Below are positions 1 to 40,618 of a stretch of DNA of 64,000 nt, one piece after another. The position numbers and the translations under genes are program-made. The number at the start of each line of letters is the position of its first letter. Position 1 is the first letter of the stretch. Below the pieces are notes generated by a model that saw nothing but the letters and a program-made list of their open reading frames with translations, was not told where the DNA came from and did no database searches. The stretch comes from Schmidtea nova (taxonomy: Eukaryota): NCBI GenBank assembly GCA_044892505.1, contig CM097883.1, forward strand, positions 232,376,001 to 232,440,000, in the 5' to 3' direction.

Positions 1-1385
1 GGAAACATGACCCAATTCCCGTCTGGTTTCTGATATAATGGTCCGTATGCATTACTGCAATTGAAAGGGTTTGGTTCAAAACTAACTGGGTTAATGATTC
101 TTGTCACTGGTTGTACATATCTTATTTTCCCTTTATATTCAATTTCCAATTCGTTGGTACATTGTCCTTGTCGTATTCTGGTCGTTGGTGCTAGGTTTGC
201 TTGTGTCTTTTGGCATATATATACATACATAACTTCTCCAACTACTCTTCCAAAATGACCTTCGTTAAGTGGTAATAATGGCATCGCACTATCCGGGTTT
301 GTAATTGCTACTGCTAGTTTCGTCTTTAATATTTCTCTGTTCAATATACAGTCGTTGTTAATGAGATCGTAGTATATTTTTTCCATTGATGCTTGGCCTT
401 TATGAAATAAAAAATCTAATTTGTTATTTAAATATACGTGCAATTTGATGTCTGTAGTGTCTATCTTGGGCTTTGCATTTGGTGCTGCTTGTCTTGATAC
501 ATAAATACCTGGATAATTTGTTTCTAACATAGAAACACCACATTTTAATGCCGGTTTTCCTTTTACAAACCTCATTCCTATATTTGCGTTTGATGTAACC
601 AATACTGTTGGCGTCTCTCTCATTCTCACCTCTTTTTCTTGTACTTTAGTTGTGAACGGTTTCTCTCCTTTTACTGTCTCCTGTAGACGTTTTCCTCTTG
701 CTACTTCATCATCCTCTTCTTCCTGAAAGATTTTTCCTTGTACCTCGTCGAACTCTGCTTCCTTTAATAATTGTAATTGGCATTCATTTGCTTTTGCTCT
801 GTATGTTAAAGTTGACATACCGGTTTGACAAGTACTGGCTTCAATTTTGCACATTGATAACGTCTTCATTTCTCCTGTTGCTGGGTCAAAATATGCTTCA
901 TACGCTTTTAATTCTACCGTATATGTGTCGATCACTACCATGTTAGTTGCTGGTACTCCAAATATTGGATATGTTGCTCCTTGACAGTAACCTTCTCCTC
1001 CTGTGATAGCTCCTGCTACATAATATGTTTGTTGTAGTATTACTCCAGCTTTTCCTCTTATCTTTATTCGATCTCTTGTTTCGACTTCTCCATGTTTAAA
1101 CAATTTATTGCAATCTTCTCCTTGTAACATTATCGCTTCTCTTTCCGTTCCTGGCATTACGATTGCAGAGTAGTGGCGATGTCCACAATAAAAAGCAAAT
1201 CTTGTTTTATATATTTTACATTCATTAACTGTTGTCTTTATTAAGTCGGCTTCCTGATATACGTGATATATTTGTTTACTATGTAATACTTTTAATTCTG
1301 TTGGAGTTGCATCTTTGCATTGTTCTGTTCCTCTTAATGAATATTTTTCTCCTAATGCCATCTGGTCGCAATCAAATACTTCGAA
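1..1385 (-). other. Chuvirus-type / gB-like (class III) envelope glycoprotein ectodomain (partial)
   Basis: xFDC start after a signal-like segment, YVYQ-like HVYQE, CK...YCG.H..IV motif, and a LYxxxxxxxC.L...IL...P...G....GEV....C motif typical of chuvirus-like glycoproteins found in LTR elements. Confidence 0.75.
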
Positions 1386-4300
1386 CGCCGTTGCTCCTTC
1401 AATGCTAATTAGCCATATTAATATCATCATTATGATTGAATTCAGGTTTAGTGAAGGTTTTCCACTTCTTGTTCCTGACTTTTCTTTTTCTAATTCTCCT
1501 AAAATTTCTTCAAATTTCTTTTTCATATTCTTTGCTTGACTGTTTCTTTGATTCGTTTTAGCAAATGTTTCCCATCCTCCTTTACTGATGACGTATGGTT
1601 CTATTTCTTTTGCTATGATGCTTGCCGTATTTTTGATATGTTTCTCTATTGCCGTAGATTTTGGATTACCTCTACTCAATGTTAATAAGTTATAAATTGT
1701 ATACGCAATTGCTATCACATATTTATTATCGTTTTCTGCATCTTCAGTTAACCTCTTTATCAACGTTGTGGTCCCTTGCCAATCTAAATGGCTTGATTTT
1801 GTCTTCTCTTTTATCAGTTCGGGTAAGATTGGTGCGATTGCGCTATGTAATGCTTTAGCCTTGTCGCTTATTTCGTTTATTCTCCACCATTTTTTCAATT
1901 CTGGATCAATTATCGCCAATATTTCCATTAGTGTTTTTGATATCCATCCTTCACCTTGACATTTTTGCGTTCTTTCCTGGTCTTTTGCTTCTGCTATTTT
2001 GTTGAGTTTCTTTAAACATAATTCCCATTTCTCTTGTCTCCTTTCTTCTTTTGTTTTGTTGATTACATTGGCTGGATCTGTCTTTGGTCTACCTCTAGGT
2101 CGTCTATCCATTGTTGTACCTGTTTCAATCAATCTGGTTTCTCGTCCAGTTTCTTCTGTAACATCTCTTGGTTCATTATTTTTCTGTTCCCACCATTTTT
2201 CCATTTCTTGTGTTAATCGTTCGTTTTCTGTATTTGCTCCTCTTGTTTCTTCTTCAGAGATTTCGTTCACTTCTTCTATTTCTATTTCTTGCTCAACTTC
2301 ATCTTGGGTATTGATTGCTTGTGACGTTGTGGGTAACTCTTGTACTCTTTCGAAAATATTATTGCCTTTTTCTTTTGTCAATTTTGCTAATTCTTCTAGC
2401 ATGTCATCACTGTCTGTTAAGATTTCTTCTGCATCGTATGGTTGTGGTCGAGTTCTTTCTTGGGTTTTAGTTGGTGTTGTTTCATACTGTCTTGCGCTTG
2501 TTCCTGGCTTTATCTGCATCGTCTTCCTTAGATTCTGAGTATCTCCACTTTCTTTTATTCTTTTCTCTTTAAGTTTTAATGGTTGACCTGCTATTGCGTC
2601 TACTGTTAACGTATTTGCCAGTTCTAACTGTGCTGGCGTTATCAAAATTTCCATATCGTTTTCTAGTGATCGTCCTTGATGTTGTAGATGAAATGGTGGT
2701 TCATATTTTAATCTCTTTTTAACATCTCGAATTTTTTCGGTTAATTTTACCCAAAGCTCTTCCTTTTCTCGATCTGGATATATTATCCTTAAATGTATTT
2801 TCTGCGGTGGTTCTTGGGAGTTTTCTTGGTTTCTCCATTTCTTGATTACATTGTCTAATTGTTCTGGGCACCACTCGTTAACTCGTTTATATTCTGCTAC
2901 TACCTTGGCTACTTTTCTTAAACTGATTATATCTTCGCCGCCTGCTACAAAGAATTCGGCTAATCCTTTGATCGTTCGCCTTTTTCCTTGTACATTTCCT
3001 TTTAGTAATTCAATAAGTTCGTCAGCTTTTCGTCTTTGCGTTTCTAACCATATTGCTGCGGTTTCTGGTCCATCCAAATCTGTTGGCATGACTTTTCTTG
3101 TCACCATACAAATTCTTCCAATTTCTGGTTCATATTTATCTTCCATTTCTGGTCTAAATTCTTCTTCATATATACCTCCTTTTGCTTTCCAGCATTTCTC
3201 TTTAACATCCCAGTGTTTCTCTACTGGTGTTAATCGGCGTTCGTTGAAGTTTAATTCTCCTAATACATTTTCCCATTCTGGCTGTATCTGCCATCTTCGA
3301 TAAATTTCTATTATTTGTCTTAGTTTGTGCATCGCTTCTCTTTGACGTTCTTGTCTCCTTTTTTCGTCTTTTGGTGTTTCTCTTGGTGTATCATCCATTC
3401 TGATAACATGAATTGTTTGGTAATTATCCCATATACCAATTTTATATAATCGTCTCTCATCATGATCCCCTAGTACGTGTTCATTATATTTCATGATGAT
3501 ATCGTCTACCAATTCGTCTTCTTTTTCCCGTTGTAATAAGGTTTCATTGATAACATCAACTAATTCTTCTATTGTACAATCCGCGATTACTTCAATTTCT
3601 TTTGTGTCTTCGTTTGGTAATTTCACTTTGATTTTTAAATCTCCTATTTCTCCTCGTTTAAACATCGCTTTTCCCATTTTCGCGATCACTCTCCAAGTCT
3701 TGTATGACGAATGTCTCGTATGGCTGGTATCTCGTATATTTTCGATGCATTGTTTTAATTTCTCATATTCAGTTTTCGTTAATTCTTCTCTATTCTTGTC
3801 GATTTGTTGAATAATTTGTTCTATTAGTGAATTTAAATTTTCTCTGAGAATTCTTTCTTTCCTTTCTACTAACTGAGGTTTAATTCTCATCTCAAAACAC
3901 ATATTTGCTTCCTTTGCGATTTCTTGTAAATTTTCCTCTTTCTTATTGTCGCATATTGATAATGTTGTTATCTCTCCTGGCCATATGCCTGTTTCTACCA
4001 AATGCGTTGCTCGTCTTACAAGTTCATTTCCTGAATATATGAATTTGTTTTTATATGAACTTCCCAATCTGTCTTCTATCCATCGATAAATTTCGTTTGT
4101 GCATGGAGATTTGATCCAAATTCTTGGTGAACATTCGTTTATTTCTATTAAAATTATGTATTCATGGAGTGGTTCTTCTAATAGTTTGACGATGTATCCT
4201 GATAATATCTCTATTTCACGACTTTGTAATCGTTCTTTATAGTTCATTCGGAATACTGCTCTTATAAATTTTCGATATCGCTTCTTATCAATAAATTCTT

Positions 4301-6314
4301 CGTTATAAATCACTTCTAACGCATTATCTAATAGTTTCTGAATTTCATCTTCTTTAATTTGTATATTTTCTGGCGTCTTCGCTACTTCTATCTTGTTGTC
4401 TTCATTTTCTGGTTCTTTTAGCATATCTCCTGCTAAACTACTGACATCACTGTCACTTTCTACATCTGAAAATTCTCTAGTTAAGTTTCTTAACATGTTT
4501 ATATGTGCTGTCTGTTCTACTTTATCTGGTACATTTTTTGGTGGTATCTCTTCTTTTTTGTCATTGTTTTCTGATTCTTCTATTTGGTCTCTTCGTTTTT
4601 CTATCTCCATTGCTTTTCTCTGTTTGATTTTCTCTTCAAATATCTTCAATGCTCTACTTTTGACTTTTGTTACTGGTTTTGATTTCTCTTCATCGTTATT
4701 TTCTTCTATTTCTTGGATAACTGTGACTTTCATTTTATTCATTGGTACTCCTAAATCTTTCCATATGTCGGTTGGTTTCAATTTTATTGCTGCTTCGTCT
4801 TCTGTCTGTAAAATTGCTTCTCGGGGTAGTTTCGTCGTTCCCGGAATCGTCTTATTTACTTTATTAATTAATACTCCTACTTCCTCTTTTTCATCATATT
4901 CAAATTGAAATACATGATCGTTTGGCATGACTACCAACATCCTTTTTTGTTCAATAACTTCTTCGTTTTCTTGTACTATTTCTTTTTGGTTTTCTTCATC
5001 TTCCGGATTTGGGTTTATCCGGTTTGTTTCTGGTTCAATATCTTCTTTGTTATCTCTTGTTTGCTTCGTTGCTCTCATCATATTAATTCTCAATGGTTGT
5101 CGTTCTCTTTCTTGTCGTTTCTGTTCGTCTTCTCTTTGTATTCTTGCCCATTCTTGAGCATGTCGTGCTTGACTTTCTCGATTTAGTCGTTCATTTTCAC
5201 TTTCCACTTTTCTCATCATATTCATTTGTTGTTGATTCGTTTGTTGATTTCCTCTCGGTGTATTATTTATTAACTCTGTCAATCTCTGAACTTCTTGTAA
5301 TAAATGTATTTCTTTGGTGGTACTTTTATTCTGGTTATAATTACTCTGTTGATTTTCAAAATTCTGACGGTTTCCGTTATTCTGTTGATTCGCATAACTT
5401 TGTCGATTTCCGTTGTTCGACCAATTCCTTTGTTGGTTGTTTTGTTGTTGGCAGTTCTTTGCCATATGACCTGGTTGTCCACAGTTATAACATGAATTCA
5501 GGTAACATCTACTTTCCGAATGTCCTTTTCTTCCACACTTTTTACAATTTAAATTCGCGAAACATTCTTGTTGCCAATGTCCTAACTTTCCACAGGTTTG
5601 ACATTGCTTTGTCTGTCCTTGCGTATTATAATTATTTTGGTTTCCGAAATTTTGTACTTTGTTTCCTTCATTTCTCCTTTGAGGTGGTGGTCGATTTAAT
5701 TGTTGTGAGTTCGGAATATGGTTATTTATCTTCATTGCTTGTTCGTTTTGTGTCGTATCCATTGCTAGGTAAATTCTTCCTTCACTTCCGATCATATGTA
5801 ATTCAAATCTGTTGGCGATTTCCAACGCTTCATCTATTGTTTTACAACCTTGGCATCCAACTTGTGCTCTTATATCGGGTCTTCTCAATCCCCCCACAAA
5901 AATTGCTGCCATTAATTCTGAACTCATTGGACTATTTTGATTAAATGCTAATTTAGCCAATTTCTTTAATTCACTTGCATATACTGCATTTGATTCATTA
6001 ACTTTCTGCTTCCTCATGGAAAATTCTGTAAACGCTTCATTTAATACTTTATTTATTCCAAACGTTTGCTGGAAAAAATTCTTTATCTTTTCCCAACTAT
6101 CGAGTTGATCATCTGAATTTTTTGCTTCTAAATATAAGTCTAACGCACTGTCTTTTAAATATAACTGAATTCTGCTCCTTATCGTTTCTGGTTTCCATTT
6201 ACATACTTCTACAAATATACCAAATTCTTTTAAAAACGTTTCCAACTTGCTGGCATCTCCATTGAATGGTTCTCCAGTAAATTTATCTTTGATTTCTTCT
6301 TTATGTTCGTTCAT
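1..6314 (-). CDS. Gag-Ubl-Ubl-Bcl2-like-Env polyprotein (partial; open frame extends upstream to 6773 and runs off the window at base 1)
   Basis: Manual check of this minus frame found no stop from 6773 to 1 (2257 codons). First in-frame ATG is at 6314 (MNEHKEEIKDKFTGEPFNGDASKLETFLKEF, Gag-like). Knuckles CQTCGKLGHWQQEC, CKKCGRKGHSESRC, CYNCGQPGHMAKNC at ~5455-5605. Hydrophobic segment IIMMILIWLISIEGATA at 1386-1440. Ectodomain begins FEVFDCD and includes ECKIYKTRFAFYCGHRHYSAIV and DCILNREILKTKLAVAITNPD...GEVMYVYIC. Confidence 0.9.
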   Translation of the reverse strand, partial: MNEHKEEIKDKFTGEPFNGDASKLETFLKEFGIFVEVCKWKPETIRSRIQLYLKDSALDLYLEAKNSDDQLDSWEKIKNFFQQTFGINKVLNEAFTEFSMRKQKVNESNAVYASELKKLAKLAFNQNSPMSSELMAAIFVGGLRRPDIRAQVGCQGCKTIDEALEIANRFELHMIGSEGRIYLAMDTTQNEQAMKINNHIPNSQQLNRPPPQRRNEGNKVQNFGNQNNYNTQGQTKQCQTCGKLGHWQQECFANLNCKKCGRKGHSESRCYLNSCYNCGQPGHMAKNCQQQNNQQRNWSNNGNRQSYANQQNNGNRQNFENQQSNYNQNKSTTKEIHLLQEVQRLTELINNTPRGNQQTNQQQMNMMRKVESENERLNRESQARHAQEWARIQREDEQKRQERERQPLRINMMRATKQTRDNKEDIEPETNRINPNPEDEENQKEIVQENEEVIEQKRMLVVMPNDHVFQFEYDEKEEVGVLINKVNKTIPGTTKLPREAILQTEDEAAIKLKPTDIWKDLGVPMNKMKVTVIQEIEENNDEEKSKPVTKVKSRALKIFEEKIKQRKAMEIEKRRDQIEESENNDKKEEIPPKNVPDKVEQTAHINMLRNLTREFSDVESDSDVSSLAGDMLKEPENEDNKIEVAKTPENIQIKEDEIQKLLDNALEVIYNEEFIDKKRYRKFIRAVFRMNYKERLQSREIEILSGYIVKLLEEPLHEYIILIEINECSPRIWIKSPCTNEIYRWIEDRLGSSYKNKFIYSGNELVRRATHLVETGIWPGEITTLSICDNKKEENLQEIAKEANMCFEMRIKPQLVERKERILRENLNSLIEQIIQQIDKNREELTKTEYEKLKQCIENIRDTSHTRHSSYKTWRVIAKMGKAMFKRGEIGDLKIKVKLPNEDTKEIEVIADCTIEELVDVINETLLQREKEDELVDDIIMKYNEHVLGDHDERRLYKIGIWDNYQTIHVIRMDDTPRETPKDEKRRQERQREAMHKLRQIIEIYRRWQIQPEWENVLGELNFNERRLTPVEKHWDVKEKCWKAKGGIYEEEFRPEMEDKYEPEIGRICMVTRKVMPTDLDGPETAAIWLETQRRKADELIELLKGNVQGKRRTIKGLAEFFVAGGEDIISLRKVAKVVAEYKRVNEWCPEQLDNVIKKWRNQENSQEPPQKIHLRIIYPDREKEELWVKLTEKIRDVKKRLKYEPPFHLQHQGRSLENDMEILITPAQLELANTLTVDAIAGQPLKLKEKRIKESGDTQNLRKTMQIKPGTSARQYETTPTKTQERTRPQPYDAEEILTDSDDMLEELAKLTKEKGNNIFERVQELPTTSQAINTQDEVEQEIEIEEVNEISEEETRGANTENERLTQEMEKWWEQKNNEPRDVTEETGRETRLIETGTTMDRRPRGRPKTDPANVINKTKEERRQEKWELCLKKLNKIAEAKDQERTQKCQGEGWISKTLMEILAIIDPELKKWWRINEISDKAKALHSAIAPILPELIKEKTKSSHLDWQGTTTLIKRLTEDAENDNKYVIAIAYTIYNLLTLSRGNPKSTAIEKHIKNTASIIAKEIEPYVISKGGWETFAKTNQRNSQAKNMKKKFEEILGELEKEKSGTRSGKPSLNLNSIIMMILIWLISIEGATAFEVFDCDQMALGEKYSLRGTEQCKDATPTELKVLHSKQIYHVYQEADLIKTTVNECKIYKTRFAFYCGHRHYSAIVMPGTEREAIMLQGEDCNKLFKHGEVETRDRIKIRGKAGVILQQTYYVAGAITGGEGYCQGATYPIFGVPATNMVVIDTYTVELKAYEAYFDPATGEMKTLSMCKIEASTCQTGMSTLTYRAKANECQLQLLKEAEFDEVQGKIFQEEEDDEVARGKRLQETVKGEKPFTTKVQEKEVRMRETPTVLVTSNANIGMRFVKGKPALKCGVSMLETNYPGIYVSRQAAPNAKPKIDTTDIKLHVYLNNKLDFLFHKGQASMEKIYYDLINNDCILNREILKTKLAVAITNPDSAMPLLPLNEGHFGRVVGEVMYVYICQKTQANLAPTTRIRQGQCTNELEIEYKGKIRYVQPVTRIINPVSFEPNPFNCSNAYGPLYQKPDGNWVMF
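1555..1990 (-). other. Bcl-2-like domain within the polyprotein
   Basis: Helical region ending EIEPYVISKGGWETF (1563-1601; compare Bcl-xL HLEPWIQENGGWDTF). Distance from the BH1-position Asp (LTEDAEN) to the GGW Trp is 57 aa versus 56 in Bcl-xL. The NWGR motif is not conserved. Confidence 0.6.
2601..2798 (-). other. Ubiquitin-like domain 2 within the polyprotein
   Basis: IHLRIIYPDREKEELWVKLTEKIRDVKKRL..FHLQHQGRSLENDMEI aligns by eye with ubiquitin TLEV..TIENVKAKI..RLIFAGKQLED. Confidence 0.6.
3399..3638 (-). other. Ubiquitin-like domain 1 within the polyprotein
   Basis: LKIKVKLPNEDTKEIEVIADCTIEELVDVINETL...IIMKYNEHVLGDHDERRLYKIGIWDNYQTIHVIR follows the ubiquitin beta-grasp pattern (MQIFVKTLTGKTITLEV..DTIENV...LIFAGKQLEDGRTLSDYNI..TLHLV). 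Confidence 0.6.
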
Positions 6315-7519
6315 TTCGATTCCGCTGTCTTGTGTCGTTTTACTCTCGTTTCCTCTTGTTTCACTAGTATGCTCGTTATTCGTTTCGTTTGAATTATTAT
6401 CAATTTCTGCTTCTACTTCTTCTGTGTTTATTGACTCGTTATCTGATGCTTCCGTATTATTATAATTATCGTAGGTTTCACTTGAACTTTCTTCTGTTTC
6501 ACTTTCGTTAGTTTTTGTTAATTTATTGTTTTCGATTTTTGACTTTTCTACTATTACTCTTCTTGATTTACTTCCTTTAGGATTTGTTTTCTTTGTAACA
6601 CTGGTTGCTCTTTGTTTCGATTTATTTCTCTGTGAATTATCAACTTTTTTGATTGTAGCACTAACTGCTCTTGATCTCAATTTATTTCTTTGTGAATTAT
6701 TAACTTCTTGATTTTTAACTGTTCTTGATCTCGATTTACTTCTCTTTAATTTATCAATTTTTCTGTTTCTCTGTTATCGTATTCTGATTGATTGGTTGGT
6801 TGTTTGACTTGTTCTGTTCCGTGTATCTAAATTAAAAAGTCACTTCAACGATACATCATTGTTATCGTTGCGCTTTTATTCCTCATTATTGGGTTTCCAT
6901 TGTTTCCCCATTCCCGGTTTCCCCTTTATTTAAGTCTATTTAAATTATCTATTCACTGGTAACAATTATCTATATGGTCGTAATAATTATCTATCGTTAT
7001 CAAATAAATTCATTACTTTTCCCTCAGTCTCCCAATTTAATTTGTCGCTCAAACGCTTTAATTCCCTTGAGCTCTCCTGACTCAATTATCATTTTATTAC
7101 TATTCATTATATCATCATTACTCACTATTCTCACTAATCAACTCTAATTTCTCATCATTACTCACTATTCTCACTATTTCTACCGGTTTTTTTCCGGTCA
7201 ACTCTAATTTCTCTTATTCCTATTTCTACTCGTATGCATACTGAATCTCTAGTTTACTTAATCATCTTTACTCGTATTACTCAATTTCTAGTGCTCATTA
7301 CTCTTAACATCGTCGACGATTACAACTTGGTTTTATTTCATCTCTGTTGCTTATTTATTCCCTTGGCTCTCTACGCCATAATTTAATTTATTCACTTGAC
7401 TCTTCTCTAATTTATTCACTTATTCACTTGGCTCTTCTATGCCCTAATTTAATTTATTCGCTTGACTCCATGGCCCTTCTCTAGGGAAAATACCTTCTTA
7501 GAGAATAATCACCTGCTTA

Positions 7520-8480
7520 GTTAGGCCTTTGACCCTTCTTTCGGGGTAATCTTAAATAATCTGACTTGTTTGCTCTTGACCTTTTTTTTACAAGGTATTT
7601 AACTAATATGGCTTGTTTGCCCTTGACTCTTCTTTCAGAGTATTTGACTAATATGGCTCGTTGGCCCTTGACCTTTTTGTACAAGGTATTTAACTCATCT
7701 GGCTTGTTTGCCCTTGACTCTTCTTTCCGAGTATTCAACTAATATGGCTCGTTGGCCCTTGACCTTTTTGTACAAGGTATTTACTCATCTGGCTTGTTTG
7801 CCCTTGACTCTTTTTCCAGAGTATTCAACTAATATGGCTCGTTGGCCCTTGACCTTTTTGTACAAGGTATTTAACTCATCTGGCTTGTTTGCCCTTGACT
7901 CTTCTTTCAGAGTATTCAACTAATATGGCTCGTTGGCCCTTGACCCTTCTTTCAGAGTAATTAACTAATATGGCTCGTTGGCCCTTGACCCTTCTTTCAG
8001 AGTAATTAACTAATATGGCTCGTTGGCCCTTGACCCTTCTTTCAGAGTAATTAACTAATACGGCTCGTTGGCCCTTGACCCTTCTTTCAGAGTAATTAAC
8101 TAATACGGCTCGTTGGCCCTTGACCCTTCTTTCAGAGTAATTAACTAATACGGCTCGTTGGCCCTTGACCCTTCTTTCAGAGTAACTAATATGGCTTATT
8201 TGCCCTTGACCCTTCTTTCAGAGTAACTAATATGGCTTATTTGCCCTTGACCCTTCTTTCAGAGTAACTAATATGGCTTATTTGCCCTTGACCCTTCTTT
8301 CAGAGTAACTAATATGGCTTATTTGCCCTTGACCCTTCTTTCAGAGTAACTAATATGGCTTATTTGCCCTTGACCCTTCTTTCAGAGTAACTAATATGGC
8401 TTATTTGCCCTTGACCCTTCTTTCAGAGTAACTAATATGGCTTGTTTGCCCTTGACCTTTTTATACAAGGTATTTAACTA
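7520..8480. repeat. Tandem repeat array in the element 1 leader (about 20+ units of 41-45 bp, core GCCCTTGAC)
   Basis: Alternating dimeric units at ~7590-7920, 45-bp units from 7921, and 41-bp units from ~8190. Confidence 0.95.
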
Positions 8481-9075
8481 ATCTCTTTAACCGGTTAACC
8501 GCACTTATCCACTTCACTAGTTATCATTCAGCTGAATTATCTCTATTTTTATAAGAGTTATCACATTAACTTTCATTCTACTTATTTACTTAATGTTCTT
8601 TCGACTTCCACTGATCAGTGTTCTATTCTCTCTTTTTTATTTGTATTTTCTGCATGCACTTAAACCTCATTAGATTGTTCCTACCTTTCACCCCAACCAA
8701 AACATACAAAAAGATCGCATTGGTCTACTAATGCAAGATGTGGTGATCAGTCACATCACAAAAGCTTTCCAATATCCGCGATGGGCCCCTTTCTATACAT
8801 CTCGGGTAAGTTGATCAGTTGGTTCCTCCCAATGGGTGCTTAACGGACTACTCGTGAGCAGCTCAAAAATTATTTATAAATATCAATTGTTATTATGATT
8901 TCTGTCATTGCCATTATCAATTTTCATTATACATTCTCGTTGTCAATTCTCATATTAATTCTCATTATGAATTCTCATATTAACTCTTATTATGAATTAT
9001 CATATTAATTCTCCTTATCAATTAATTCATTATCCTTTATCACAAATCATATTATTCAATTTCAAAATTTATTTA

Positions 9076-9537
9076 TTATAAATACACAATAATTCTTTCG
9101 TCTATTTCGAGATTGCACATCGGGCATTTGTCGCAATTGGCTGCACAGATTCCACAAAACCGAAAATGTCCACATGGTAAAAACATGATTTTATTCTCTC
9201 TTTCTCGACATATGTAACACAGTTTAAATTTCTTAGCTGTCTCAGTCCCTTGTATCGTCCACTTGTTGTATGTTGGAGTTAATTGTTGCTCTAACTGTCT
9301 GCATTTTATGTTTACATCAGCATTTTCTAATCTCGTTCGGTACCACTTGTATCTAGTTGTTATATCTATTTTGTCTACTCTTTCCATTATTTTTATCAGC
9401 TCTGTTGTCTCTTCGGTTTGTGTCATGGGTTCTTTGAATCCGGATTCTCTTATTCGACTTATTTTCTCACATAGTTCATCGTATGTTTTGTTTTCCGTGT
9501 TTAAGAATTCTTCTATTTCTTTTAATTTATCGTTCAT
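9076..9537 (-). CDS. Accessory protein with C-terminal IAP-type RING finger (C3HC4), putative E3 ligase, no BIR
   Basis: CYICRERENKIMFLPCGHFRFCGICAANCDKCPMC followed by a hydrophobic tail IIVYL*, as in IAP RINGs. Acceptor TTATTTAG|CA-ATG upstream; AATAAA overlaps the stop. Confidence 0.85.
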   Translation of the reverse strand: MNDKLKEIEEFLNTENKTYDELCEKISRIRESGFKEPMTQTEETTELIKIMERVDKIDITTRYKWYRTRLENADVNIKCRQLEQQLTPTYNKWTIQGTETAKKFKLCYICRERENKIMFLPCGHFRFCGICAANCDKCPMCNLEIDERIIVYL

Positions 9538-10244
9538 TGCTAAATAATTGATATTGTTAATATGTTTGCTGTTTTATTTAGTATATAAAAAAATAAAGAT
9601 TTCAATATCTTGTTTCTCTATTTGTTCAATTTGTGTTGGTCAAAAGTAGTGGTACATTTCGTTTTCTGATGTTAAACCTCTCCCTGTTTCATCAAATTGT
9701 CGTCCCGACATATTTATTTATGTTTATTTATTTTATTTTAATATCAATTATTAATCGTCTGTTGTTATATTTATTCAATAGTTGTTTTTCAAAATTCTCT
9801 GTTGATATTGTTTTCACTTTTATACAAAAATCAATTATGTTTTCGGCTGAGGGGCACTTTAAAACTCCTGGTTATTATTGGATTCAATTTTTCGCACAAA
9901 AACCAATTTGATCCCGGCTGAGCCCCCAAATTTATGTTGTTGGTTTCGGTTGGGTTAAAACAAAAATACAAAATGAATTAATAATTATTTTTAAACGCTC
10001 TAGGGATTCCTCCATCCAAAACCTCACATAAAATGCTTACATATCACACGAGCACCCTCGATCATTTCCCTGTAATAATCGAGTTGGAAATGTGCAAGGT
10101 GTTTGAACAATGATGGGCAGGTGAGCTCTATTGCTAAAACTACTCCCCATTTATGTTCACGGGTTCGTCTCGCTGCCGATAGAAGGACTTACGCTTTAAT
10201 TTTAATCTATCCGCATCCATTTATCTTTCATTTCAATTATTTCT

Positions 10245-10350
10245 TTTCGCCCCCTTTCGTTACAATATATTTCAACTTTCAACTTTTCTTTCAGCCCCCT
10301 TCTTTACAATATATTTCAACCTTCAACTTTTCTTTCAGCCCCCTTCTTTA
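10245..10350. repeat. About 2.5 copies of a ~43-bp repeat (cagcccccttctttacaatatatttcaac..ttcaacttttcttt)
   Basis: Direct repeats visible in the sequence. Confidence 0.8.
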
Positions 10351-10554
10351 CAATATCAACAAATAATATTTTTACGATATGTTATTTCTTTAATGCTATT
10401 ATTGTTCATTACTTTATGTCAATCTTTTATTTATAATCTACATTTAATTTAATTTAAAAATCCTTTAATAAAATACTTTAGTTCATATACTTTACAATAA
10501 AATAAATACAAACAAAAATTATTTAATAAGCAAAATTTACAAATCACAAAATTT

Positions 10555-11145
10555 CTATTCAAAATATTTGGAAATGTCTTCATCTGATATTGTAAAATTC
10601 ATGTTCAAATCAATTTCTGGAATGTTGTTTGATCGTTGTGCCAATTGCTGGAGAACTTGTTTCTTCCAGCGACGCTGACGCGCGCCCATCTTACTCTTCT
10701 TTTTCTTTTTGACTTCTGGAATTATTACGTCCTTTGGTGTGATTGAGGCCGCCGTTGCTTGAACCTGAGATGGTTCCTCTGTGCTTGTTCCTTTTGAGCA
10801 TCCTGCCTTTTCGTCAGCCCAATGCTGGTAAGTGATTGGTCGAATGAGCTGGCTGAGCTCTTGAGTTAGATATGATGCCGTTACAGATTTTAGGCATTTC
10901 TTTAATTCCATCTTCGTTGCGTCCAATTCCATTTGCAGTTCGCTGTTAGCTCGCTGTGAGCGTTGAGTTTTGGTGATTTGCATTTTCATTTGGTCTGGAC
11001 TGAACCAGCTTTTCTTTAGGTTGGAAATTATTCCATCGGCTTCTTTTATTTTCTCTGACTTTCGCAGCATTTCCTTTTCCAGGCTGCGAATTATTCTCCA
11101 GGCTTTGTCTAATTCGGCTTGATTGGTTGCTGTGTTTGCTGACAT
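10555..11145 (-). CDS. Accessory protein of unknown function: coiled-coil N-terminal half plus basic KKKKKSKMGARQRRWKK segment
   Basis: Intact 196-aa ORF on the same strand as gag, with acceptor TTTTAG|AAA-ATG just upstream. Confidence 0.7.
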   Translation of the reverse strand: MSANTATNQAELDKAWRIIRSLEKEMLRKSEKIKEADGIISNLKKSWFSPDQMKMQITKTQRSQRANSELQMELDATKMELKKCLKSVTASYLTQELSQLIRPITYQHWADEKAGCSKGTSTEEPSQVQATAASITPKDVIIPEVKKKKKSKMGARQRRWKKQVLQQLAQRSNNIPEIDLNMNFTISDEDISKYFE

Positions 11146-11873
11146 TTTCTAAAATTCAAAATGGTTTATTGACATGAAGTTAGTAGTCTTGATTCGAACG
11201 ATTCTCATACCTTTGACAATTGGTAATTGTTAATTTAGGAAAAGAAAATGATGTACCTATTACGCTTTCAACACTGTCGCTATGTACAGCGATCAGATAC
11301 ATTTATTTCATAATGCATTTTATTTATTTACGCCTGTGCTATATACAGCATTCAGGATAAGAAAATTATTAAAATAAACTAAGATCCACTGCCCTATGTA
11401 CAGGGTTCAGGATAAGCAATTATGTTTAATTATTTATGTGGAATGTTTGATCCTATAGCCTATTGCTGCTATGTTACTTGCGTAGTAGATCACTACGCTA
11501 TTAAATTATCGATTTTTATGTTATTGTTAAAATTACATTTTGTACAAATTCTTAACCCTGCATCTGCCGCTCTATGCCCACAAACCCCAGATGTGACAAT
11601 CGAAAAATATAGGTTAACATTCGGTGAATTCCAATATAAAATCAGATTAGAAAAATCACAGCTATATCTGTCTCAAACTAAAATCAAAATTCAACTTAAC
11701 TATAAACTCTAAAAATTTAAATCGATTATAAAATAAAACTTCAACTGGTTATACTATCCAGTGAAAATAAGGTTAAAATCATTGTTAAATAAGAATTCCT
11801 ACCCTCGTCACGGCGCTTTACACCGGTCGGACGGCCTAACTGTACGGAGCAGTCGTTTCTACTCGGCACAGTA

Positions 11874-11881
11874 TGCCTCCA
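11874..11881 (-). promoter_or_regulatory. Candidate primer-binding site TGGAGGCA (tRNA-Thr-like 3' end)
   Basis: Directly follows ...AACA at the candidate LTR end. Only 7-8 nt match metazoan tRNA-Thr 3' ends as I recall them. Confidence 0.35.
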
Positions 11882-12514
11882 TGTTCCCGATTGCACGGTG
11901 AACGGAGCCCCTTAAATCATACGTAAGTTTATACTATAAATACGGTATATAGATAATATATATATTCGCCTCCTTCCACTGATTGCACAGTGGAAGAAGC
12001 TCGACCCAAAAATTACTTCTAAAAAATATACTTGTTAGTTGTTAGTATAAACTGATACTGTTACCTCCTTCCACCGATTACACGATGGAAGAAGCTTAAT
12101 AAAAGATATATAATATATAAATATAGTCATCTCCTTCCACTGATTTCACAGTGGAAGAAGCTTGGTTAAATTCTATATTCGACAAAAATTTAAAAAATCA
12201 TATATCATAAAATATTTTATTAACAATTAACTACAATGGTCAATGACAGATAATCACAAAATTTATAAATTCAATAAAACAAAAATACTCATACCTTTCA
12301 AGTTCTGTTCAAATATCTTTCAGTATCAAATAATCACAAGATCATAAAATCACAAAGTGTTTGTTTTAAAACTTTCAAACTTTAAAAACTTTCAACTTAA
12401 AAACTTAAAAACTGCTTAAATGCTGCTTAAATTTTAACTGAATCTGGATCAGTATATATACTGATCAGATCAGATCACTGACCAATCAGCATCAATCTGA
12501 TGGTCATCAATACA
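11882..12514 (-). repeat. Candidate 5' LTR of element 1 (633 bp, TGTA...AACA)
   Basis: TGT/ACA termini; CCAAT at 12482; TATA inside a perfect palindrome GATCAGTATATATACTGATC (12447-12466); AATAAA at ~12216-12221; followed by TGG. The partner LTR is not in the window. Confidence 0.55.
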
Positions 12515-14890
12515 ATAAAATCAAAAATAAAATCAATTTTTTTAACAAATATAATTTTCATTTTCTTGTTTTAATTTACCGATTTTTTTATTAATTCTTC
12601 TTCTTTTTTACTTATTTATTTCGCTTTCTTATTATTTAAATATAATTAATTATCATTTTTCTTTAACACTTTTACATTTTCTATTTACATTCTTCTAAAT
12701 TTTGATAGAAAATTAATATTCTTTATTACATTTTAATTTGTTTTTACTGATATTTTCATAATTATTTTTATTTTAATTTATTCTTATTTTCTCTCTTATT
12801 ATTATTATTTTTCATGCTAAATGTGGACCAAATGGTGGATCCAACAATATATATATATATACAAAAATATTTTCAATAAACTTTTGACTTCTTTCTGCTT
12901 TTCTTTCCCATAACAATGATTTCTTTTAAATTTGTTGTAATCGTAAAGGAATAATTTAAAATATAATATAAATAATAATAATTTTCTACATTGAAAATCG
13001 TGAAATATTTTGTTCAATCAATTCAAAGAAAGCCTAATTTGTTTTATACTAAAATAAATGAATTAAAATTCGGCTTGATTTAATTTGTCATAATTGTGAT
13101 TACAGTTTCTTGGCAAGCTAAATTCTGTCAAAAATAATTTTGTTTTTTATTTTTCTCTCATCGGTTTCCTCAGTGAAAATCTATCTATGGGCGTTCTTTT
13201 GTTGAGAGTTTGTTCTTTGTTTTATTTTTTGAAATTCAATTGTTTTCTAAATATTTTTATTTCATTTTATTTATTATTAATTTAACAAATATTTTTCAAC
13301 TTTGAAAGGCTATATAGAAATTATTATTTTCATTTGTTATGGAATTAATAAATGTGAGAAATTAAAAAGTCGAGATGTAGAGAAAAGAATTCAGTTAAAA
13401 ACATAAATTTATATTATTTACAATTTTCTTTCTGTCAAAATTGATGGCAAATATAATCTTATACTCAAACTCAAAAATATCATAATTTAATTACTCACAT
13501 ATTACGTATATGCGTGTTATTTTAATTATAAATATGTAAAAAATTATATTTCAAATGGCATACTAGTTTAGAGCCCATTTGGCAGTCATCAATATTGTGT
13601 ACAAATCAAACCTTGTAGACATACAGACAAGTCCGAGAACCTAAAAATGTTAATGCTGAAAATTCGTGTTAAATAAAAACAAAAGCAATTACTGATAAGC
13701 AATAAAAATAAATAAAGATAAAAAATTGTACAAGTGTCAATGGTGAAAAATCATATTTAATTAAATTTTGATTTATTTAGCAATAAAATGCTTTATAAAG
13801 TTATTTGTAATTAATTAAAAGGGGTTTAGATATTAAAAATATATTTATACAATATTTTGTTACTTTAATTGTAAATTATAAAATAATAAAAGTTTAATTT
13901 TTTAAAGTAACTTTATTAAATATCTAATTTATTCATAACATTATGAAATATATTCGTTATTTTATTAGACCGAAATATTATTGAAGAAATTATGGAAATT
14001 ATCTGACAATAAATTCCATTTCATTCAATATCTCACACATTAAAATTATATTTTTTCTTACAATTATTATATTTAAAGAAAACTAAAAGATAATATTTTT
14101 AGTTAAAATTATTGACTTTAATTTATTTTCATTCTTTTAAATTATAGATCAAACATGTTTTGAATTTAAGACAAATTTTCAAAGAAAAAGTGTGCCAAAA
14201 TTATGTGTCAAATTGAATGAAAAAAGAAAAAACATTGAAAATAAACAAAGTCCTAAAATAATTGATGAATGTTGAACAGATAAATAATTCACTATTGTTT
14301 TGTAATTATTTGTTTGTATATATTTAATTAAAATTATCGTAACAAATTTTTATTTAAAAATGTTAAGTTAGATTTTTAAAAATAAATTATTTAAAATCAT
14401 TAAATATAATTCATTAAAAATATTTATTTAAAATTTATTAAAATTTAATGTTTAAATTTCAAAATTATAAAACTTAAATGATTTATATTTCGGGTTGACT
14501 CCTCGGGTTTATCTCAAAGGACATTCAGAATTTAGGCCATTTTTACCTCATCCTATTTTGTTACATATTGTCACAAAAGAATTTGATAAATAAATATAAA
14601 TAAAATTATTTGTTATATTAAATAAATAAATAAATAAATATTGTTAATGCCGTATTTTATTATCGCTATTTATTATTTTTCATGTATTTTATGGTATAGA
14701 GACCCCCCAGTTGTATTTGGGATGGTGTTTACCAATTATTATTATTATTACTATCATTATTAAAATTCAAATTTTTAAATTGAATTAAATAGCTTACTAG
14801 AGTAATATACTATAGTAAGCTAATGACAAATAAAAAAATCAATTTTATATTTTGATATTTTAATCCGGCGTATAAACGAATTAAACAAGT

Positions 14891-30650: not shown

Positions 30651-31189
30651 GCAGCGCCTAAAGATTGATGCCGGTCGCTAACCGGATTAATTAATAATTT
30701 TTTACATAAATGACAGTTTGTTAAAGATGAAAAAGATAATTAATCCGTATGATTAAAAATAATTTCTTTTGATAAGTTTTGTAAAAATAAGGGAAAACCA
30801 TTTATTTACTTATTTTTCATGTTAAATGAAATACATCAATCCCTAAAACTTTTTGTAAAATTTATCCCGAGTTAGGCAAAACAAGGGTCAAATCAACTTA
30901 GAATATCGAATGTAATAAATGGAGTTAACAATTTATCAACCCTTTGAAATTTTACCTAATTCCATCAATCAAAGTGGAAATTCTTGAGCAATATTATTTT
31001 AACACGAAACTTTGTAGAAGTATAGCTAATCTTTCTTTTTATGTAACCGTGAATCTCAATTTGAAATACTATTTTTAATTTTAGATTTTTTATTGGTGAC
31101 GGAAAATGATACATTATGGAAATAAGTTCATTTACCTTAAAAATAAAAAGAAAACCGCATCGATAGTTTTATTAATCAACACAATTTTT

Positions 31190-31700
31190 GCGTGTGATTA
31201 CCATCATTTTTGTGCCAACACACTGACCGCAAGAAACTTGATTACAATTTGAGCAGATGGAGTTCGTTTTGTTGTGGTGAATCCTAATTTGGTAGTTTTT
31301 CGTCTTTTGAAGAAAGTTGTGTGTCGGTTAGAAGTTGAAGGAGATTGAACAATACACTGGTTGTGCATGGACCTTTTGCTGCACAATTTTTCTCCAACTT
31401 TCAAAAAGAAATTTCTTCATGAATTTTTGTCATTTGTCACTTTTTTATTATAATCCATGAGTTCAAACCATATAACCATTTCATCGAAGATGTACACTTC
31501 TTAAAATTAAACAATTTCAGGAACTTTCTTAGGAGAAGAGCCATAACGTGCACGCTTGATGAGATGCACTAATTAAATATACTACTTTTGTAGATTTTCC
31601 ATTGTAAATTATCAAGGACAAATTCTTTTCGTGACACAAGGAAAACCTGCTTTCATATCTTGATAGTGATTTTTCATGCAGTTGTTTTAAGAGCTCGCGA
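31190..31700 (-). pseudogene. piggyBac transposase C-terminal remnant
   Basis: RRNFFLKVGEKL-like segment and Cys-rich tail QIRIHHNKTNSICSNCNQVSCGQC; possible end tcaaccctttg at ~30936. Confidence 0.55.
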
Positions 31701-32206
31701 CGATTTTTTGGACGGTGCTTACCACGCTGTACTTTCTTTTTCGCTACTCTTTTCTTAATTTCGAAGAAGTGAAGAAGTTGTCACAGGTAACGTTATAACT
31801 CCTTTATAGTAGTATTTCATTAAATACATCACAACATATGTTGCAAGGTCTCTATTTTTGCTGTCGGTGAAAAATTGTTACTAGATTAACCGACGTGATT
31901 GAAAGGTCGATGAGAGATTTATGAATATCGAATATTTGAAAAAAGAGAAAATACAATTTGAAAAGTAAAGAAAACGAGATTAATTTTTGTGATTAGAATA
32001 AAAGTAAAAATAAATCGTATCCGTTGAAATAAAAGATTAAAAGGTTGAAAAGAAAGGAAAGAATTGATAAAATCCGATTGCCAATAATAAAGTCAAAATT
32101 AAAGTAAAAGGTAAAATTAAAAATTGTAATATTTTGAAATTTAGACGCAAAAAAAGTTGTCCAAAAGAAGTTGTATAATCTACGAAATAAGAAACAAGTG
32201 GAAAAT

Positions 32207-33400
32207 ATGGCTAGTAATTCAAATAATAATGATCAAATACCCATGTCTACAACTCCCACAAACAATGGCCTTGATTTTGCAAGCTGCCAGAAATTGCAAG
32301 TAGAGGGATACGGAGGAGACCCGATTGATTTTATTGATTTCATGGCGGACTACTAAATGTACGCCACAGCATACGAATGGAGCCAATCAATTATGGTACA
32401 AAGGTTACCATTATATTTGAAAGGTGCAGCAAGAGAAGCTTGGCAACAGATCGATAAAAGACTTATCACAAAGGATTGGACAAAGCTATAGGATGCATTG
32501 GCAGCCAAGTTAATCGGTGGCTATATCAAAAGAATATTGCGCCAAAAATTTACAACCGAGTGCAAAAGCCAAATGAATTGGTAAGTGAGTTTGCTTATCA
32601 TTTAAAAACTCTTGCAAAAAAAGCCTTTGAAGCGAAACCCGAACAACCTGATGTGACGAAACAAGTGAAAGAATTATTACAAAATCAATTTTTGTCAGGA
32701 GTAAAAAGGGAGATAGAAAAGGCCTTGTTATTTAGATTTTAACAATTTCGATGAATTGAATAAAAAGGTCATGAAAATTAAATTGAATCTCAAAACCACG
32801 CAACAGATATCAGAATCCTTTGCAATTGTCAATGAAACAAGAGATGAATCAGTAACTCCGGTTAGAGAGAATCATTTTGCAAAAATCAACACGTTAATCA
32901 CCAAAGTTCAGAGTGAAATTCGAGCCAAGAAAGTCGACAAACAGCCCAAATGAAGAGAGAGAAAAGCCAATTCAATGTAGTTTTTGTAAATGATTGGGAC
33001 ATCAAGTAAACCAATGTTGGTTTAAAAACAACGCTTAAAGAAGCCCAAGTCCTGTTCACGAAAAGGCATAGTAATAGTCAATGTTAGTTTCAAAATAATT
33101 TGCAATGGAGTCCAAGAAAGATGTGGCCAGATTGGTTGAAAGACAATGTCGAGAAAACTTTCAAGAGAGGGGACAACAATGATCAAAGAGCTAGTGATAA
33201 TATGCAGTACTATAATTGTGGAACGAAAGATCATATTTCACGAAATTGCTTTGCAAGATCGAGATCTCCGTCAACATCACCATCACCACAGAGAGATAGA
33301 GTAAATCTCCAAGGACAAATTCAATGTCACTCATGCAGAGGTTATGGTCACATGGCTAGATCATGACCAAAGAATAATGAAATATTTCAAAGACCTATAT
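32207..33400 (+). pseudogene. Element 2 gag (stops and frameshifts)
   Basis: EGYGGDPIDFIDFMADY*MYATAYEW..RLPLYLKGAAREAW; three knuckle remnants CSFCK*LGHQVNQC, YNCGTKDHISRNC, CHSCRGYGHMARS. Confidence 0.85.
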
Positions 33401-33834
33401 CAAAATGATAAATCAAAATTTGATAATGTGGCTTTTGTACAACCCGATGATGTCAATGAAAGAATTGAAAAAGAGATAAAACAAATGGGTAAACGATTGG
33501 ATCAATTAATGTGTAAATTTAATCAGACGAAGAAACTGATAATCATGTGATGTATGAATCGCAATCAGAAGGGTCAGAGACAGATATAATAAAGGAAGTA
33601 GTAAATGATGAATTAGAAACAGAAAAAAATAAAAATGATTATGTCGAGAATAAAAATTTTAATATAGTCAATAGTAAAAGAGACATTAAAAGTAATGACA
33701 CTGCTAAAGAAATTGAGTCAAATGCCGATGAGTATACAAAAAATAAAAAGTGTACTTGAAATGTGTGCTGATTATCATAATGAGAATTCAAAAGATAAAA
33801 CTGAAACTGAGAAAATTCTTCAGAGTGAAAACAT

Positions 33835-34060
33835 GTTTAGATTTTATTGTTATTGATATTGTTGATGAAAGCAATAATGATGTGATGTGTATTCGTTGTG
33901 AAATAAGAGAGTGCGTAAAGGAGTTTAAAATGAGATTAGAGGAGAATAGTGGAAAATGGATAAAAGAAGTAAAATTTAGAAATAGATGTTTAAATGATGA
34001 TGAAGTTTTAATAAATTGTGGACTAACACCTGAGAATTAAAATATAGTATAGATAGTATT
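33835..34060 (+). pseudogene. Element 2 ubiquitin-like domain
   Basis: FIVIDI..VMCIRCEIRECVKEFKMRLEENSG..EVKFRNRCLNDDEVLINCGL matches the Ubl pattern. Confidence 0.55.
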
Positions 34061-34899
34061 AATGATTAGAAATAATGAAGTAATAAAAGATGATTCACAA
34101 AAGATTTATAAGGAATTAAAGGATATTTTGTGTAGAGGGGATGCACATAAAATTGTTAGAAAATTAAAGTTAATAGAAGAAATTGAAATTGAGAGGGATT
34201 GTAAATTAGATATTATAGATGCAATAAGGCCATATATATATATATATATATGAAAAATGAAAATATAGAGAAAGTTTAAGAAATTTAGTACGACGATTGG
34301 GCAAGGAACTTAGAAAAACTACAGTCGAAATGATTCCGTTTACAATAGCATTAGATTACGAAGATTATGGAAAACTGAATATAAAGTAGAGCATTGGTAC
34401 ACAAAAGTTCGAAAATTAAGAAAATAGCTGCTGATAGAATAGGAAAAGATGGAATTATTATTTTTATGTTTAAAGGTATTTGTACTACAAGAGTTAGATG
34501 AAAATGGATATTTATGTTCCGATACCGGAAATGGATATTTGATAAATTATGTAACAGTGATTAAGGAACAGAAATTTGAATTAATTGATAAATCTGATGG
34601 ATCAAATACAGACATAGAAAAAGATAATGAAAATGAGATTAAAGATGACAAAGAAATAAACGAAATGGTAAATGATAATAAGGAAACCAAGCAGAATAAT
34701 AAAGATGGGTGTAAAATAACAAAAGTGCAAGAATTTGAGGAAAATAAAGGCGAAATGAATAATGAAATTAATACTAAGAAGCCTAGAACTTTATATGAAA
34801 TAAAGAAAGGTCTTGTGAGATTGGAACAAGAAGTAAATAAAACCAAAGTATTATTAAAAAGTGTGACTAAAGCAATATACCCAATGTGTGAAATTGAGA

Positions 34900-35200
34900 T
34901 CGATGTAAAATATGAATTGGGAGACATAGTAAATGAAGTAAAAAACAGAATCCCTAGTATCATGCAACGATTTGGTAAAGTTTTTCTGATAAAGAGGTCA
35001 TCGAGAAATTAACTAGAAATGAAATTACTAGAGAAGTGATATTAATGAGCTTAACTTATGTAATTTTGGAAATTGGTGCTCATAACATCATGAAATCAGA
35101 TGAATTAGAAAATAAGATAGATACTTCTGCTCGAAATATAAACACATACTTAATGAGTTGGAAAAAAAAGATTGGAGGTTGGGACAAATTGATGAAAATG
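34900..35200 (+). pseudogene. Element 2 Bcl-2-like domain
   Basis: NTYLMSWKKKIGGWDKL. Aligns ungapped over 48 aa with element 1: KS..[IL]E..I...A..I......[YW]....GGW. Confidence 0.55.
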
Positions 35201-36034
35201 TTTATAATAAATGAAAACGAAAATGACGAAGAAAATCTACCTCAAAAATCGCTAAATGTGAGAGTTAGTCCAGAAACGAGGAAGACTATTATGTTTCCCT
35301 GGGCAATCTTTATGATAATTCATTTGTGTGCAGGAATCACATAGGTAACGAGTATAAATGCTTATGATTGTTCTAAAACAGAAATGGGAATAATTTATTC
35401 GGTTATAGATATGGCAAAGTGTTCAGACGCATATCCAAGAAAATTAAAAATAGAAAATGATGTGAAATACTATGTATATCAAGAGTCTGATTTACGACGA
35501 ACACCGGTAAGAGAAAGTATGGTTAAGCGTACTGCCTTTATATTTTATTGAGCAAATGCAGCCATACTTCATTGATAAAAATATATACAATCACACTGCC
35601 AGTGGGAGTTATGCCGGAAAATTGCCTCACTGCTTTTCAAACAGGAGAATTAAAACTAAATGCAGAAATTAAATTAAAAGCAAAACGAAATCATAGAATG
35701 AGAGAAACAGTGGTCGTAAAAGGAGTAATGAAACAAGATGGAGATTGTGAAGGTGAACCATACAAAGTAGATGGAAAAATAATCAAACAATCTGTAGTAA
35801 TTGAGGAATATTTTACGGAATTGAGGGAATTTGAAGGACCTTTTGATGTTGATACGGGAAAGTTGCAGACACATCCATTTCTTAACATGAAGCAAACTAA
35901 TTGCCAAACGGGAGAGTCAATCCTTTTGTTTAATGTCAAAACCTAGGCATGTAATTTGGCGCACTTAAAAACTATGAATTTCAAAGAATTGTGCGGAGAA
36001 CAGTTTCGAGAACGACTAGACAATTTTAATACTA

Positions 36035-39269: not shown

Positions 39270-39365
39270 AAGCAACCTCGGATAAATATACAGTTTAATG
39301 AAAGAACTGTCGAAGCCTTGTTGGATTCAGGTTCAAGTCACAAAATAGTGTCGGACAAAATGTTA
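39270..39365 (+). pseudogene. Element 2 aspartic protease, N-terminal half
   Basis: PRINIQFNERTVEALLDSGSSHKIVSDKML. Confidence 0.85.
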
Positions 39366-39427
39366 AAGCGTAACTGTGGTGGGGGTTTTATTTTGTCGGG
39401 CGGGCATGTCGGAGTGTATGGGAAAAG

Positions 39428-39817
39428 TTGAAAATTGTTCATAATAGCGATATAGATTATGAAGAACTGATAATCAAGTCTGTAGATGAATTGGATACTT
39501 TAATCAATACTGATTGCAACGAAAAGCCTTCTCAATGTTCAAATTGTGAAACAGTTTTAAATAACTCATTTGAACTTTTAGTTCATTCATATACTCATGT
39601 TGAACATAGTAAAGAAAATGAATTGTTTCAAATTTGCCCCAACTGTAGTAGATTATTTTTCAAAAAGAAAAAAAACAGTAAAAGCTATTTCAAAGATCAT
39701 TATAATTCTGAACATCTTAAAAAGTCACCTCCTCAATATGATGCGGAATGGATGGAAAACTGCTATGACTTTTCGCAAGAGGATTCACAAAATTCTTGGT
39801 CTCCAATTAATAAATAA
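39428..39817 (+). pseudogene. C2H2 zinc-finger protein fragment (host-like DNA inside element 2)
   Basis: CSNC-x12-HSYTH canonical finger plus a degenerate CPNC...HYNSEH finger. Confidence 0.65.
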
Positions 39818-40605: not shown

Positions 40606-40618
40606 TTCATAAGGGAGA

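Follow-up and report, generated by a model that had tools for sequence, protein, structure and literature searches.

The planarian retrotransposons Burro and GYPSM1 are the closest described systems to the element considered here. They carry AIR1, MATH/TRAF, BIR, ankyrin, BCL2-like and Ubi2/SUMO-like motifs, with env placed in frame after BCL2 and ahead of protease, and have been proposed to meddle with host apoptosis and ubiquitination (PMC6431247). A functional IAP with both RING and BIR (B-IAP) is reported from Burro1, where it guards stem cells from caspase-mediated apoptosis (Lee et al. 2026, as cited in PMC13465017, a source available in part), and BURRO1 expression and a TRAF expansion in planarians have also been described (PMC8532177 and PMC6109357, both available in part).

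Here we describe a copy of such an element in Schmidtea nova, located in a stretch of 64,000 nucleotides (assembly GCA_044892505.1, contig CM097883.1, forward-strand positions 232,376,001 to 232,440,000; hereafter the window). This copy is a Burro-type giant Ty3/gypsy element lacking reverse transcriptase (RT), and it probably spreads by co-packaging with sisters from the same subfamily that still bear RT, the majority of these being themselves without the block of ubiquitin-like (Ubl) domains, Bcl-2-like domain and env. An earlier note, made from the letters of the window, had regarded the joint presence of Bcl-2 and IAP homologues as novel; that combination of cargo is already published for planarian Burro (PMC6431247; PMC13465017, in the part available). 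What appears to be new, against the literature searched, is the existence of four recombining, in-frame forms in one young Burro subfamily.

Limits of the element

Direct comparison of the two long terminal repeats (LTRs) delimits a minus-strand element of 25,369 bp with (AT)n at both outer flanks; here and below, features lie on the minus strand unless said otherwise. The 5' LTR (9935-12846) is 2,912 bp long and runs from TG to CA, while the 3' LTR lies beyond the window (232363478-232366389 on the contig; L002 3478-6389) and is 100% identical to it. A search of the genome with the LTR returned paired matches ~22 kb apart in many places, the 100% match lying 22,457 bp upstream of the LTR in the window. 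The earlier note had drawn the element as 1-12514; its true right end is at 12846, 332 bp further. A paired LTR, which that note had supposed, is the identical 2,912-bp repeat just described, and the RING and basic open reading frames (ORFs) that it assigned to the element do lie within the limits set by the two identical LTRs. It also had the general anatomy right, one env-bearing gypsy-type element with apoptosis/ubiquitin cargo, the RT-less state not having been visible to it.

Two in-frame deletions

Compared with its long sisters, the present copy has lost 3,021 nt with the frame preserved, the missing stretch beginning directly behind protease and reaching to the end of integrase; undeleted sisters are ~3 kb longer than the 25,369-bp copy. 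The YxDD motif of RT is absent from all frames of the three stretches covering the present copy (a control locus has one), and Pfam found RVT_1, RNase H and rve only in the long sisters. Six long copies, 95-99% identical to the present one, carry protease, RT, RNase H and integrase (PR-RT-RH-IN). In one of them, L003, Pfam gives this same order and the best PDB matches are to Ty3 RT (E 1e-84), far above other RTs; on this domain order and Ty3-like RT we assign the element family to Ty3/gypsy (Metaviridae).

Open frames collected by a protease search group near 5,130, 4,120, 3,330 and 2,323 aa. The RT deletion could be sized at 27 of 28 loci and measures 3,021 nt (17 loci), 3,039 nt (8) or 2,973 nt (2), all multiples of three, and the word IN(M)(L/F)R following the junction is kept at all 27. 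The 2,973-nt class retains more left-hand sequence and is therefore not derived from the other RT-deletion classes. A census by exact patterns, whose junction counts are lower bounds, gave 50 RT-deleted versus 16 RT-bearing junctions, with 0 matches for reversed controls. Splicing was considered as the source of the deletions and rejected, the junctions inspected not being GT-AG.

A second deletion removes a different part of the polyprotein. Eleven of 11 copies from the shorter classes are without aa ~748-2542 (Ubl block, Bcl-2-like domain and env), through the loss of 5,385 or 5,388 nt, again in frame, and these env-deleted sisters depart from the shared sequence at 4522-4538 of the window. 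An upstream marker pattern covering both env states gave 82 matches, and 64 of the 66 RT junctions could be paired with it: 36 copies had env without RT, 12 lacked both, 5 had neither deletion and 11 had RT without env. With 19 further loci and L018 added, the final census comprises 84 copies, distributed as 50 with env and without RT, 11 with RT and without env, 14 with both deletions and 9 with neither, where presence of env denotes the parental-type junction marker, the block itself being read through in only 8 sister copies.

Probable recombination among the four forms

As alleles of one subfamily, the four forms share 94-99% identity, and all four classes have a common primer-binding site and polypurine tract. 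Each of the three env-deletion alleles occurs both with and without RT (A in 3 and 2 copies, B in 6 and 4, C in 2 and 6, respectively), the single-nucleotide polymorphisms (SNPs) flanking the common RT junction are carried by 5/5 double-deleted copies, and trees built from either half do not separate RT-deleted from RT-bearing copies. If the markers are each of single origin, four haplotypes require recombination within the ~480 nt that separate them.

It might be supposed instead that the deletions arose repeatedly, through retro-copying of spliced subgenomic RNAs or at deletion hotspots, so that no RNA recombination would be needed. Breakpoints are indeed concentrated at the borders of modules, and two or more of the RT deletions arose independently (2,973 vs 3,021 nt), but the same junction recurs with the same flanking SNPs on both backgrounds, and we consider such an origin very unlikely.

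The LTRs bear on when the exchange took place. Seven double-deleted copies were checked: in five the LTR pair is complete, shows 0-1 mismatches and is bordered by matching 4-bp flanks, one has a partial pair at 100% and one pair was not recovered. In the other classes, 7 of 10 LTR pairs are whole and show 0-4 base differences. Divergence between the LTRs of different copies is 2-6%. The near-identical LTR pairs and matching flanks of the mosaics therefore date the exchange to reverse transcription or an earlier stage. Mosaics could otherwise have come from integrated copies, through ectopic recombination or gene conversion, for which dozens of 95-99% identical copies offer material, conversion being possible in principle. 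Inter-locus crossover would, however, break both the LTR pairing and the target duplications, and thus the 5/5 complete double-deleted pairs, with 0-1 mismatches against 2-6% between copies, argue against it. Conversion followed by retrotransposition may nonetheless have contributed; taken together, this class of explanations appears highly improbable.

Probable co-packaging, helpers and possible division of labour

The same junction alleles on both backgrounds, the near-identical LTRs and the intact target duplications point to co-packaging and template switching. We envisage that the RT-less genome would be transcribed and translated to give Gag, cargo, Env and protease, and would then be co-packaged with RT-bearing RNA or protein of its sisters; enzymes provided in trans would carry its own RNA through packaging, reverse transcription and integration. 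Particles would hold two different RNAs, and a template switch by RT within the ~480-nt protease interval would yield the double-deleted mosaics. Deletions that preserve the frame may have been favoured, probably via translation or Gag acting in cis; the in-frame bias suggests such a cis advantage of translation, as in mouse IAP I-delta-1. The element's own protease would cut the polyprotein at (R/K/H)-I-(N/C/A)-(M/V/A)-(M/L) motifs, with both deletions apparently near such borders. Judged from the sequences, dependence of the RT-less copies on a helper is likely.

A number of observations weigh against this account. The 9 undeleted copies could by themselves act as helper, as could an abundant sister family with 5,140-aa frames, which shares the primer-binding site and little LTR sequence. 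Three of the 9 undeleted copies are older (88-92% identical), one seen only in part. Perfect microhomology at the RT junctions in the reference amounts to just 0-3 nt, and target duplications are exact in only 4 of the 7 complete pairs from the survey of 10 LTR pairs. The 4,108-4,140-aa frame persists in only ~15 of the 50 copies with env and without RT, and one of the 14 double-deleted copies has a private out-of-frame upstream deletion of 6,194 nt and identical LTRs, so that an open frame is not strictly required. Fisher p-values for the four-form table (0.0009-0.01) are descriptive only, because the copies are not independent.

Co-packaging can serve the RT-deleted copies in more than one way. 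A real possibility, though short of probable, is that these copies are nothing but parasites, that is, defective-interfering genomes with idle proteins, multiplied by undeleted or sister-family helpers, whose open frames reflect their youth. Consistent with this, every class is very young (0-4 LTR mismatches), the frame is broken in most RT-deleted copies, and double-deleted copies, with neither RT nor env to supply, have spread as well (14/84). On the other hand, all the multi-copy junction classes are in frame (three RT sizes and two env sizes) as against one single-copy out-of-frame case, and variants shared among RT-deleted copies are mostly synonymous.

Such synonymous variation could instead point to a reciprocal division of labour, in which RT-deleted copies would give env and anti-host cargo and env-deleted copies would give RT and integrase, to the benefit of both; this is unproven, and on balance we find it doubtful. 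The reciprocal classes make up 61 of the 84 copies and undeleted ones 9, the env and RT markers are in repulsion, and a plant precedent has been argued for Athila (PMC2410132, available in part). In six RT-deleted copies, env variation is strongly synonymous (pN/pS 0.02 for shared variants and 0.10 for singletons, with 0.14-0.24 in the accessory block). These six copies were, however, picked for intact frames, and the purifying selection may date from undeleted parents and have been passed on by recombination, given that the trees are intermixed; the pN/pS of 0.02-0.57 among RT-deleted copies is confounded by recombination. Repulsion is expected merely from two deletions on different backgrounds, and env-deleted copies keep gag, PR, RT and IN and should be autonomous within the cell, with no partner needed. 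The furthest extension would be an element becoming bipartite, with envelope and anti-host cargo on one segment and replication enzymes on the other, both arising by in-frame excision from a single polyprotein that protease processes, and complementing each other while undeleted genomes dwindle to ~1/10 of copies; we regard this as unlikely.

Coding content and cargo

The 5' part of the polyprotein occupies 3-6773, with its first Met at 6314, in an open frame of 4,140 codons in all, and continues beyond the window (L001 3351-9998). That outer part holds the remainder of env and then protease, crosses the junction left by the RT-RH-IN deletion, and goes on to ankyrins, four FN3-like repeats and a transmembrane (TM) segment. 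A gag capsid domain with three CCHC knuckles lies at 5445-6314 (Retrotrans_gag E 1e-5 and zf-CCHC E 4e-10 by Pfam; knuckles by inspection). The N-terminal part of env, with an internal signal-like hydrophobic segment, lies at 3-1457, its TM anchor being outside the window. The env assignment of the earlier note holds: Pfam returns Monjiviricetes_fusion (PF24664) with E 1.6e-43 for the part in the window and, in a second search, E 1e-50. We take PF24664 to be a family of class III viral fusion proteins. A PDB sequence search with env gave no match.

Pfam also recognized Ank_2 (E 3e-11), MATH_2 (E 2e-21) and zf-TRAF in the element, and its TRAF matches TRAF3/2/5/6 in the PDB. The polyprotein is followed by four tightly packed ORFs (L001 219-3231 and L002 6580-7149) encoding a 112-aa coiled coil, a 496-aa full TRAF, a 368-aa coiled coil and a 189-aa TM protein, all conserved in the sister family (dN/dS 0.11-0.39); Pfam matches of the small ORFs were weak, below the cut-off, and were disregarded. 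At the polyprotein C-terminus, between a signal-like segment and a TM helix, four repeats with an invariant C-W..I..C..C (L001 3816-5240) resemble FN3 (ESM Atlas 0.91, the ten best family matches agreeing, with low recognition at 1534; Pfam fn3 E 0.005), and a profile of the repeats found no match in the PDB. This FN3-like module suggests a second membrane protein, retained in the deletion classes examined.

Between the element and its sister family, dN/dS could be estimated for 21 modules and takes values of 0.02-0.39, as in the Bcl-2-like domain (0.05), Ubl1 (0.05), Ubl2 (0.18), RING (0.12) and TRAF (0.16), while synonymous sites of the gag capsid and the LTR ORF are saturated in this comparison. 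By these ratios the cargo is evidently under purifying selection between families. In the sister family, whose nucleotide identity across PR-RT is 79%, many open frames measure exactly 5,140 aa, as given for a Burro-like ORF1 (PMC6431247), and another group measures ~5,650 aa; a recurring shorter class was not apparent among the scored matches of this family.

The leader ORF at 9076-9573 ends in a C3HC4 RING of the XIAP/cIAP type (Pfam E 1e-11; best PDB match the XIAP RING, E 7e-10). Pfam found no BIR in the element, and a pattern scan for one gave a single antisense match in low-complexity sequence, which is not credible. Thus the IAP-type RING proposed earlier stands, without the BIR required of the IAP family, and caspase binding through a BIR is therefore not expected.

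A diverged Bcl-2-like domain lies at 1491-1973, with the BH2 GGW retained and the BH1 NWGR absent; the NWGR position reads differently in both the present copy and its sister. Alone, the domain has no Pfam match and reaches Bcl-xL in the PDB at sub-threshold level (E 0.33-0.85), whereas a profile of five element-borne domains matches Bcl-xL with E 1.3e-6 over the BH1-BH2 helices. Of the five profile rows, three were taken from related families that match Pfam Bcl-2 with E 5e-7 to 8e-7, and hence the homology of the present copy is partly transitive. The Bcl-2-like domain of the earlier note is in this way retained at the level of a profile. Its model is all-helical with pLDDT 60, and a Foldseek search confined to viral structures returned 0 matches at E ≤ 0.001. 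Rows for E1B-19K and vBcl-2 in the Foldseek output were scattered, with TM ~0.2, and were discounted. A more distant and very abundant family (L096-L099, L093, L094) has a ~3,060-aa gag-Bcl-2-env-PR-RT-IN frame, its Bcl-2 near the Pfam cut-off and at the same position, and several host-like Bcl-2 exons also surfaced in the genome (L084-L092).

The two Ubl domains proposed in the earlier note are kept here as candidates. The first (3390-3647) has weak Pfam matches to Ubiquitin_4 (E 0.03-0.11) and OTU1_UBXL (E 0.006), and the second (2568-2810), with no Pfam match, falls with ubiquitin/Rad60-SLD clusters of the ESM Atlas (0.90-0.91). Two further stretches look Ubl-like by eye: 4698-4952, with no database support, which is retained in env-deleted copies, and 3939-4178, with no Pfam match, which is also conserved in P0001, a distant relative taken from a different source. 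A profile of the four candidates found nothing significant in the PDB (best E 0.46; RAD23 UBL 0.55), and the AlphaFold model of the region, at pLDDT 38, was too poor for a fold search. P0001 has a MATH domain inserted behind its Ubl, an arrangement also described for Burro1; in the present element TRAF is a separate gene.

Together the Bcl-2-like domain, RING, TRAF, ankyrins, candidate Ubls and FN3-like membrane protein would likely dampen host death and TRAF/NF-kB-type signalling, as a trait inherited from Burro. With NWGR and BIR lost and TRAF and ankyrins present, interference with signalling is suggested no less than a direct block of caspases or of BH3. The cargo is real, and the label 'apoptosis toolkit' that it was first given is too narrow for a set with no NWGR, no BIR, a full TRAF and ankyrins.

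LTR and leader features

Within the LTR, the stem-loops noticed earlier are three related 12-bp hairpins (11970-11999, 12065-12094 and 12131-12160), which stand out from shuffled sequence (z -5.0 to -6.0, with equally good folding in 0/200 shuffles); in the middle one (12065-12094) pairing is preserved despite base changes. The basic, regulatory-looking ORF of the earlier note is likewise present, in the ORF list, as a basic/coiled-coil frame of 197 aa (10555-11148); it lies inside the LTR, so that each element has two copies. It is a 197-199-aa frame in 10/10 LTRs checked, with a different frame start in one, and has a 198-aa homologue (36% identity) in the LTR of the sister family. Pfam gave no credible match, PC-Esterase and Pox_Ag35 falling below the cut-off and being disregarded. 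The sister-family LTR (3,252 bp) contains an additional 176-aa ORF.

The primer-binding site, presumably tRNA-Pro-like, lies at 9911-9928 and is common to all deletion classes and the sister family. The 5' leader contains a tandem array (7525-8482, no strand assigned) of ~22 copies with a period of ~41-45 bp. Insertions into (AT)n or (AAT)n microsatellites were seen for the present copy, for 2/7 complete pairs in the survey of 10 LTR pairs and for 3/5 double-deleted complete pairs. One double-deleted copy (L110/L111) has identical LTRs shortened to 1,977 bp, and a ~0.8-kb LTR segment is therefore dispensable for at least one round. Elsewhere in the window, GC is elevated and strand skews are strong at 31001-48000, and an exact direct repeat of 109 bp occurs there at 40619 and again at 44077; these features suggest further mobile elements.

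Comparison with known systems

The four forms constitute sequence-level evidence of co-packaging and recombination of Burro RNA, a behaviour like that of retroviral particles, for which we found none for Burro in the literature searched. That literature likewise holds no description of Burro deletion classes, although primary Burro papers, which lay outside the search, could contain one. A practical consequence is that repeat annotation based on RT would miss three quarters of the subfamily (64/84). In addition, the copies that keep Bcl-2 and env are mostly RT-less (50/59), which bears on the question of host versus element benefit, given the protection of planarian stem cells reported for Burro cargo.

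By published description, the element resembles Burro1-4/GYPSM1 in its giant size, single polyprotein, CCHC gag, Ubl/SUMO-like and BCL2-like modules, env between BCL2 and protease, ankyrins, MATH/TRAF and tandem repeats. Its 25,369 bp with 2,912-bp LTRs agree with the size of Burro (internal region up to 25 kb). Burro keeps PR-RT-RH-IN within the one frame; so do the 95-99% identical sisters, but not the present copy, which, since RT-RH-IN is absent, we file as a deletion derivative and not as a complete Burro. It differs further in that TRAF has a complete ORF of its own, downstream of the polyprotein, and that RING occurs without BIR, although PMC6431247 does not claim BIR for every Burro family. 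The FN3-like membrane module, the intra-LTR ORF and the reciprocal deletion classes are unmentioned in section 7 of that paper. With B-IAP of Burro1 it shares a Burro-borne RING of the IAP type, B-IAP having RING and BIR (PMC13465017, in the part available) and the present ORF RING only.

As a coding non-autonomous element of the kind known from Athila and mouse IAP I-delta-1, the present copy has no pol, has multiplied recently and carries the cis signals of its helper. The available part of the Athila account from Arabidopsis (PMC2410132) describes gag+env elements that lack pol but keep intact ORFs under purifying selection, others that bear pol and lack env, and gag-only elements, with recombination among them and cooperation proposed. 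Those are old, distinct families with separate ORFs, whereas here near-identical alleles derive from in-frame excision of one polyprotein in an animal host. The subfamily thus offers a young, countable case for the question raised by Athila, whether non-autonomous elements that still encode proteins are partners or parasites of their helpers. Mouse IAP I-delta-1, as far as the portion of PMC6466679 available describes it, is also a non-autonomous in-frame deletion derivative that outnumbers its helper in new insertions, its fusion protein acting in cis, but it represents a single deletion class with no env, no reciprocal class and no anti-host cargo. In cattle, ~85% of the copies of the ERVK[2-1-LTR] C and D types are non-autonomous and co-packaging has been inferred by a four-haplotype test (PMC10924933, available in part); the D type there has no intact ORFs, whereas the defective classes described here keep long open frames.

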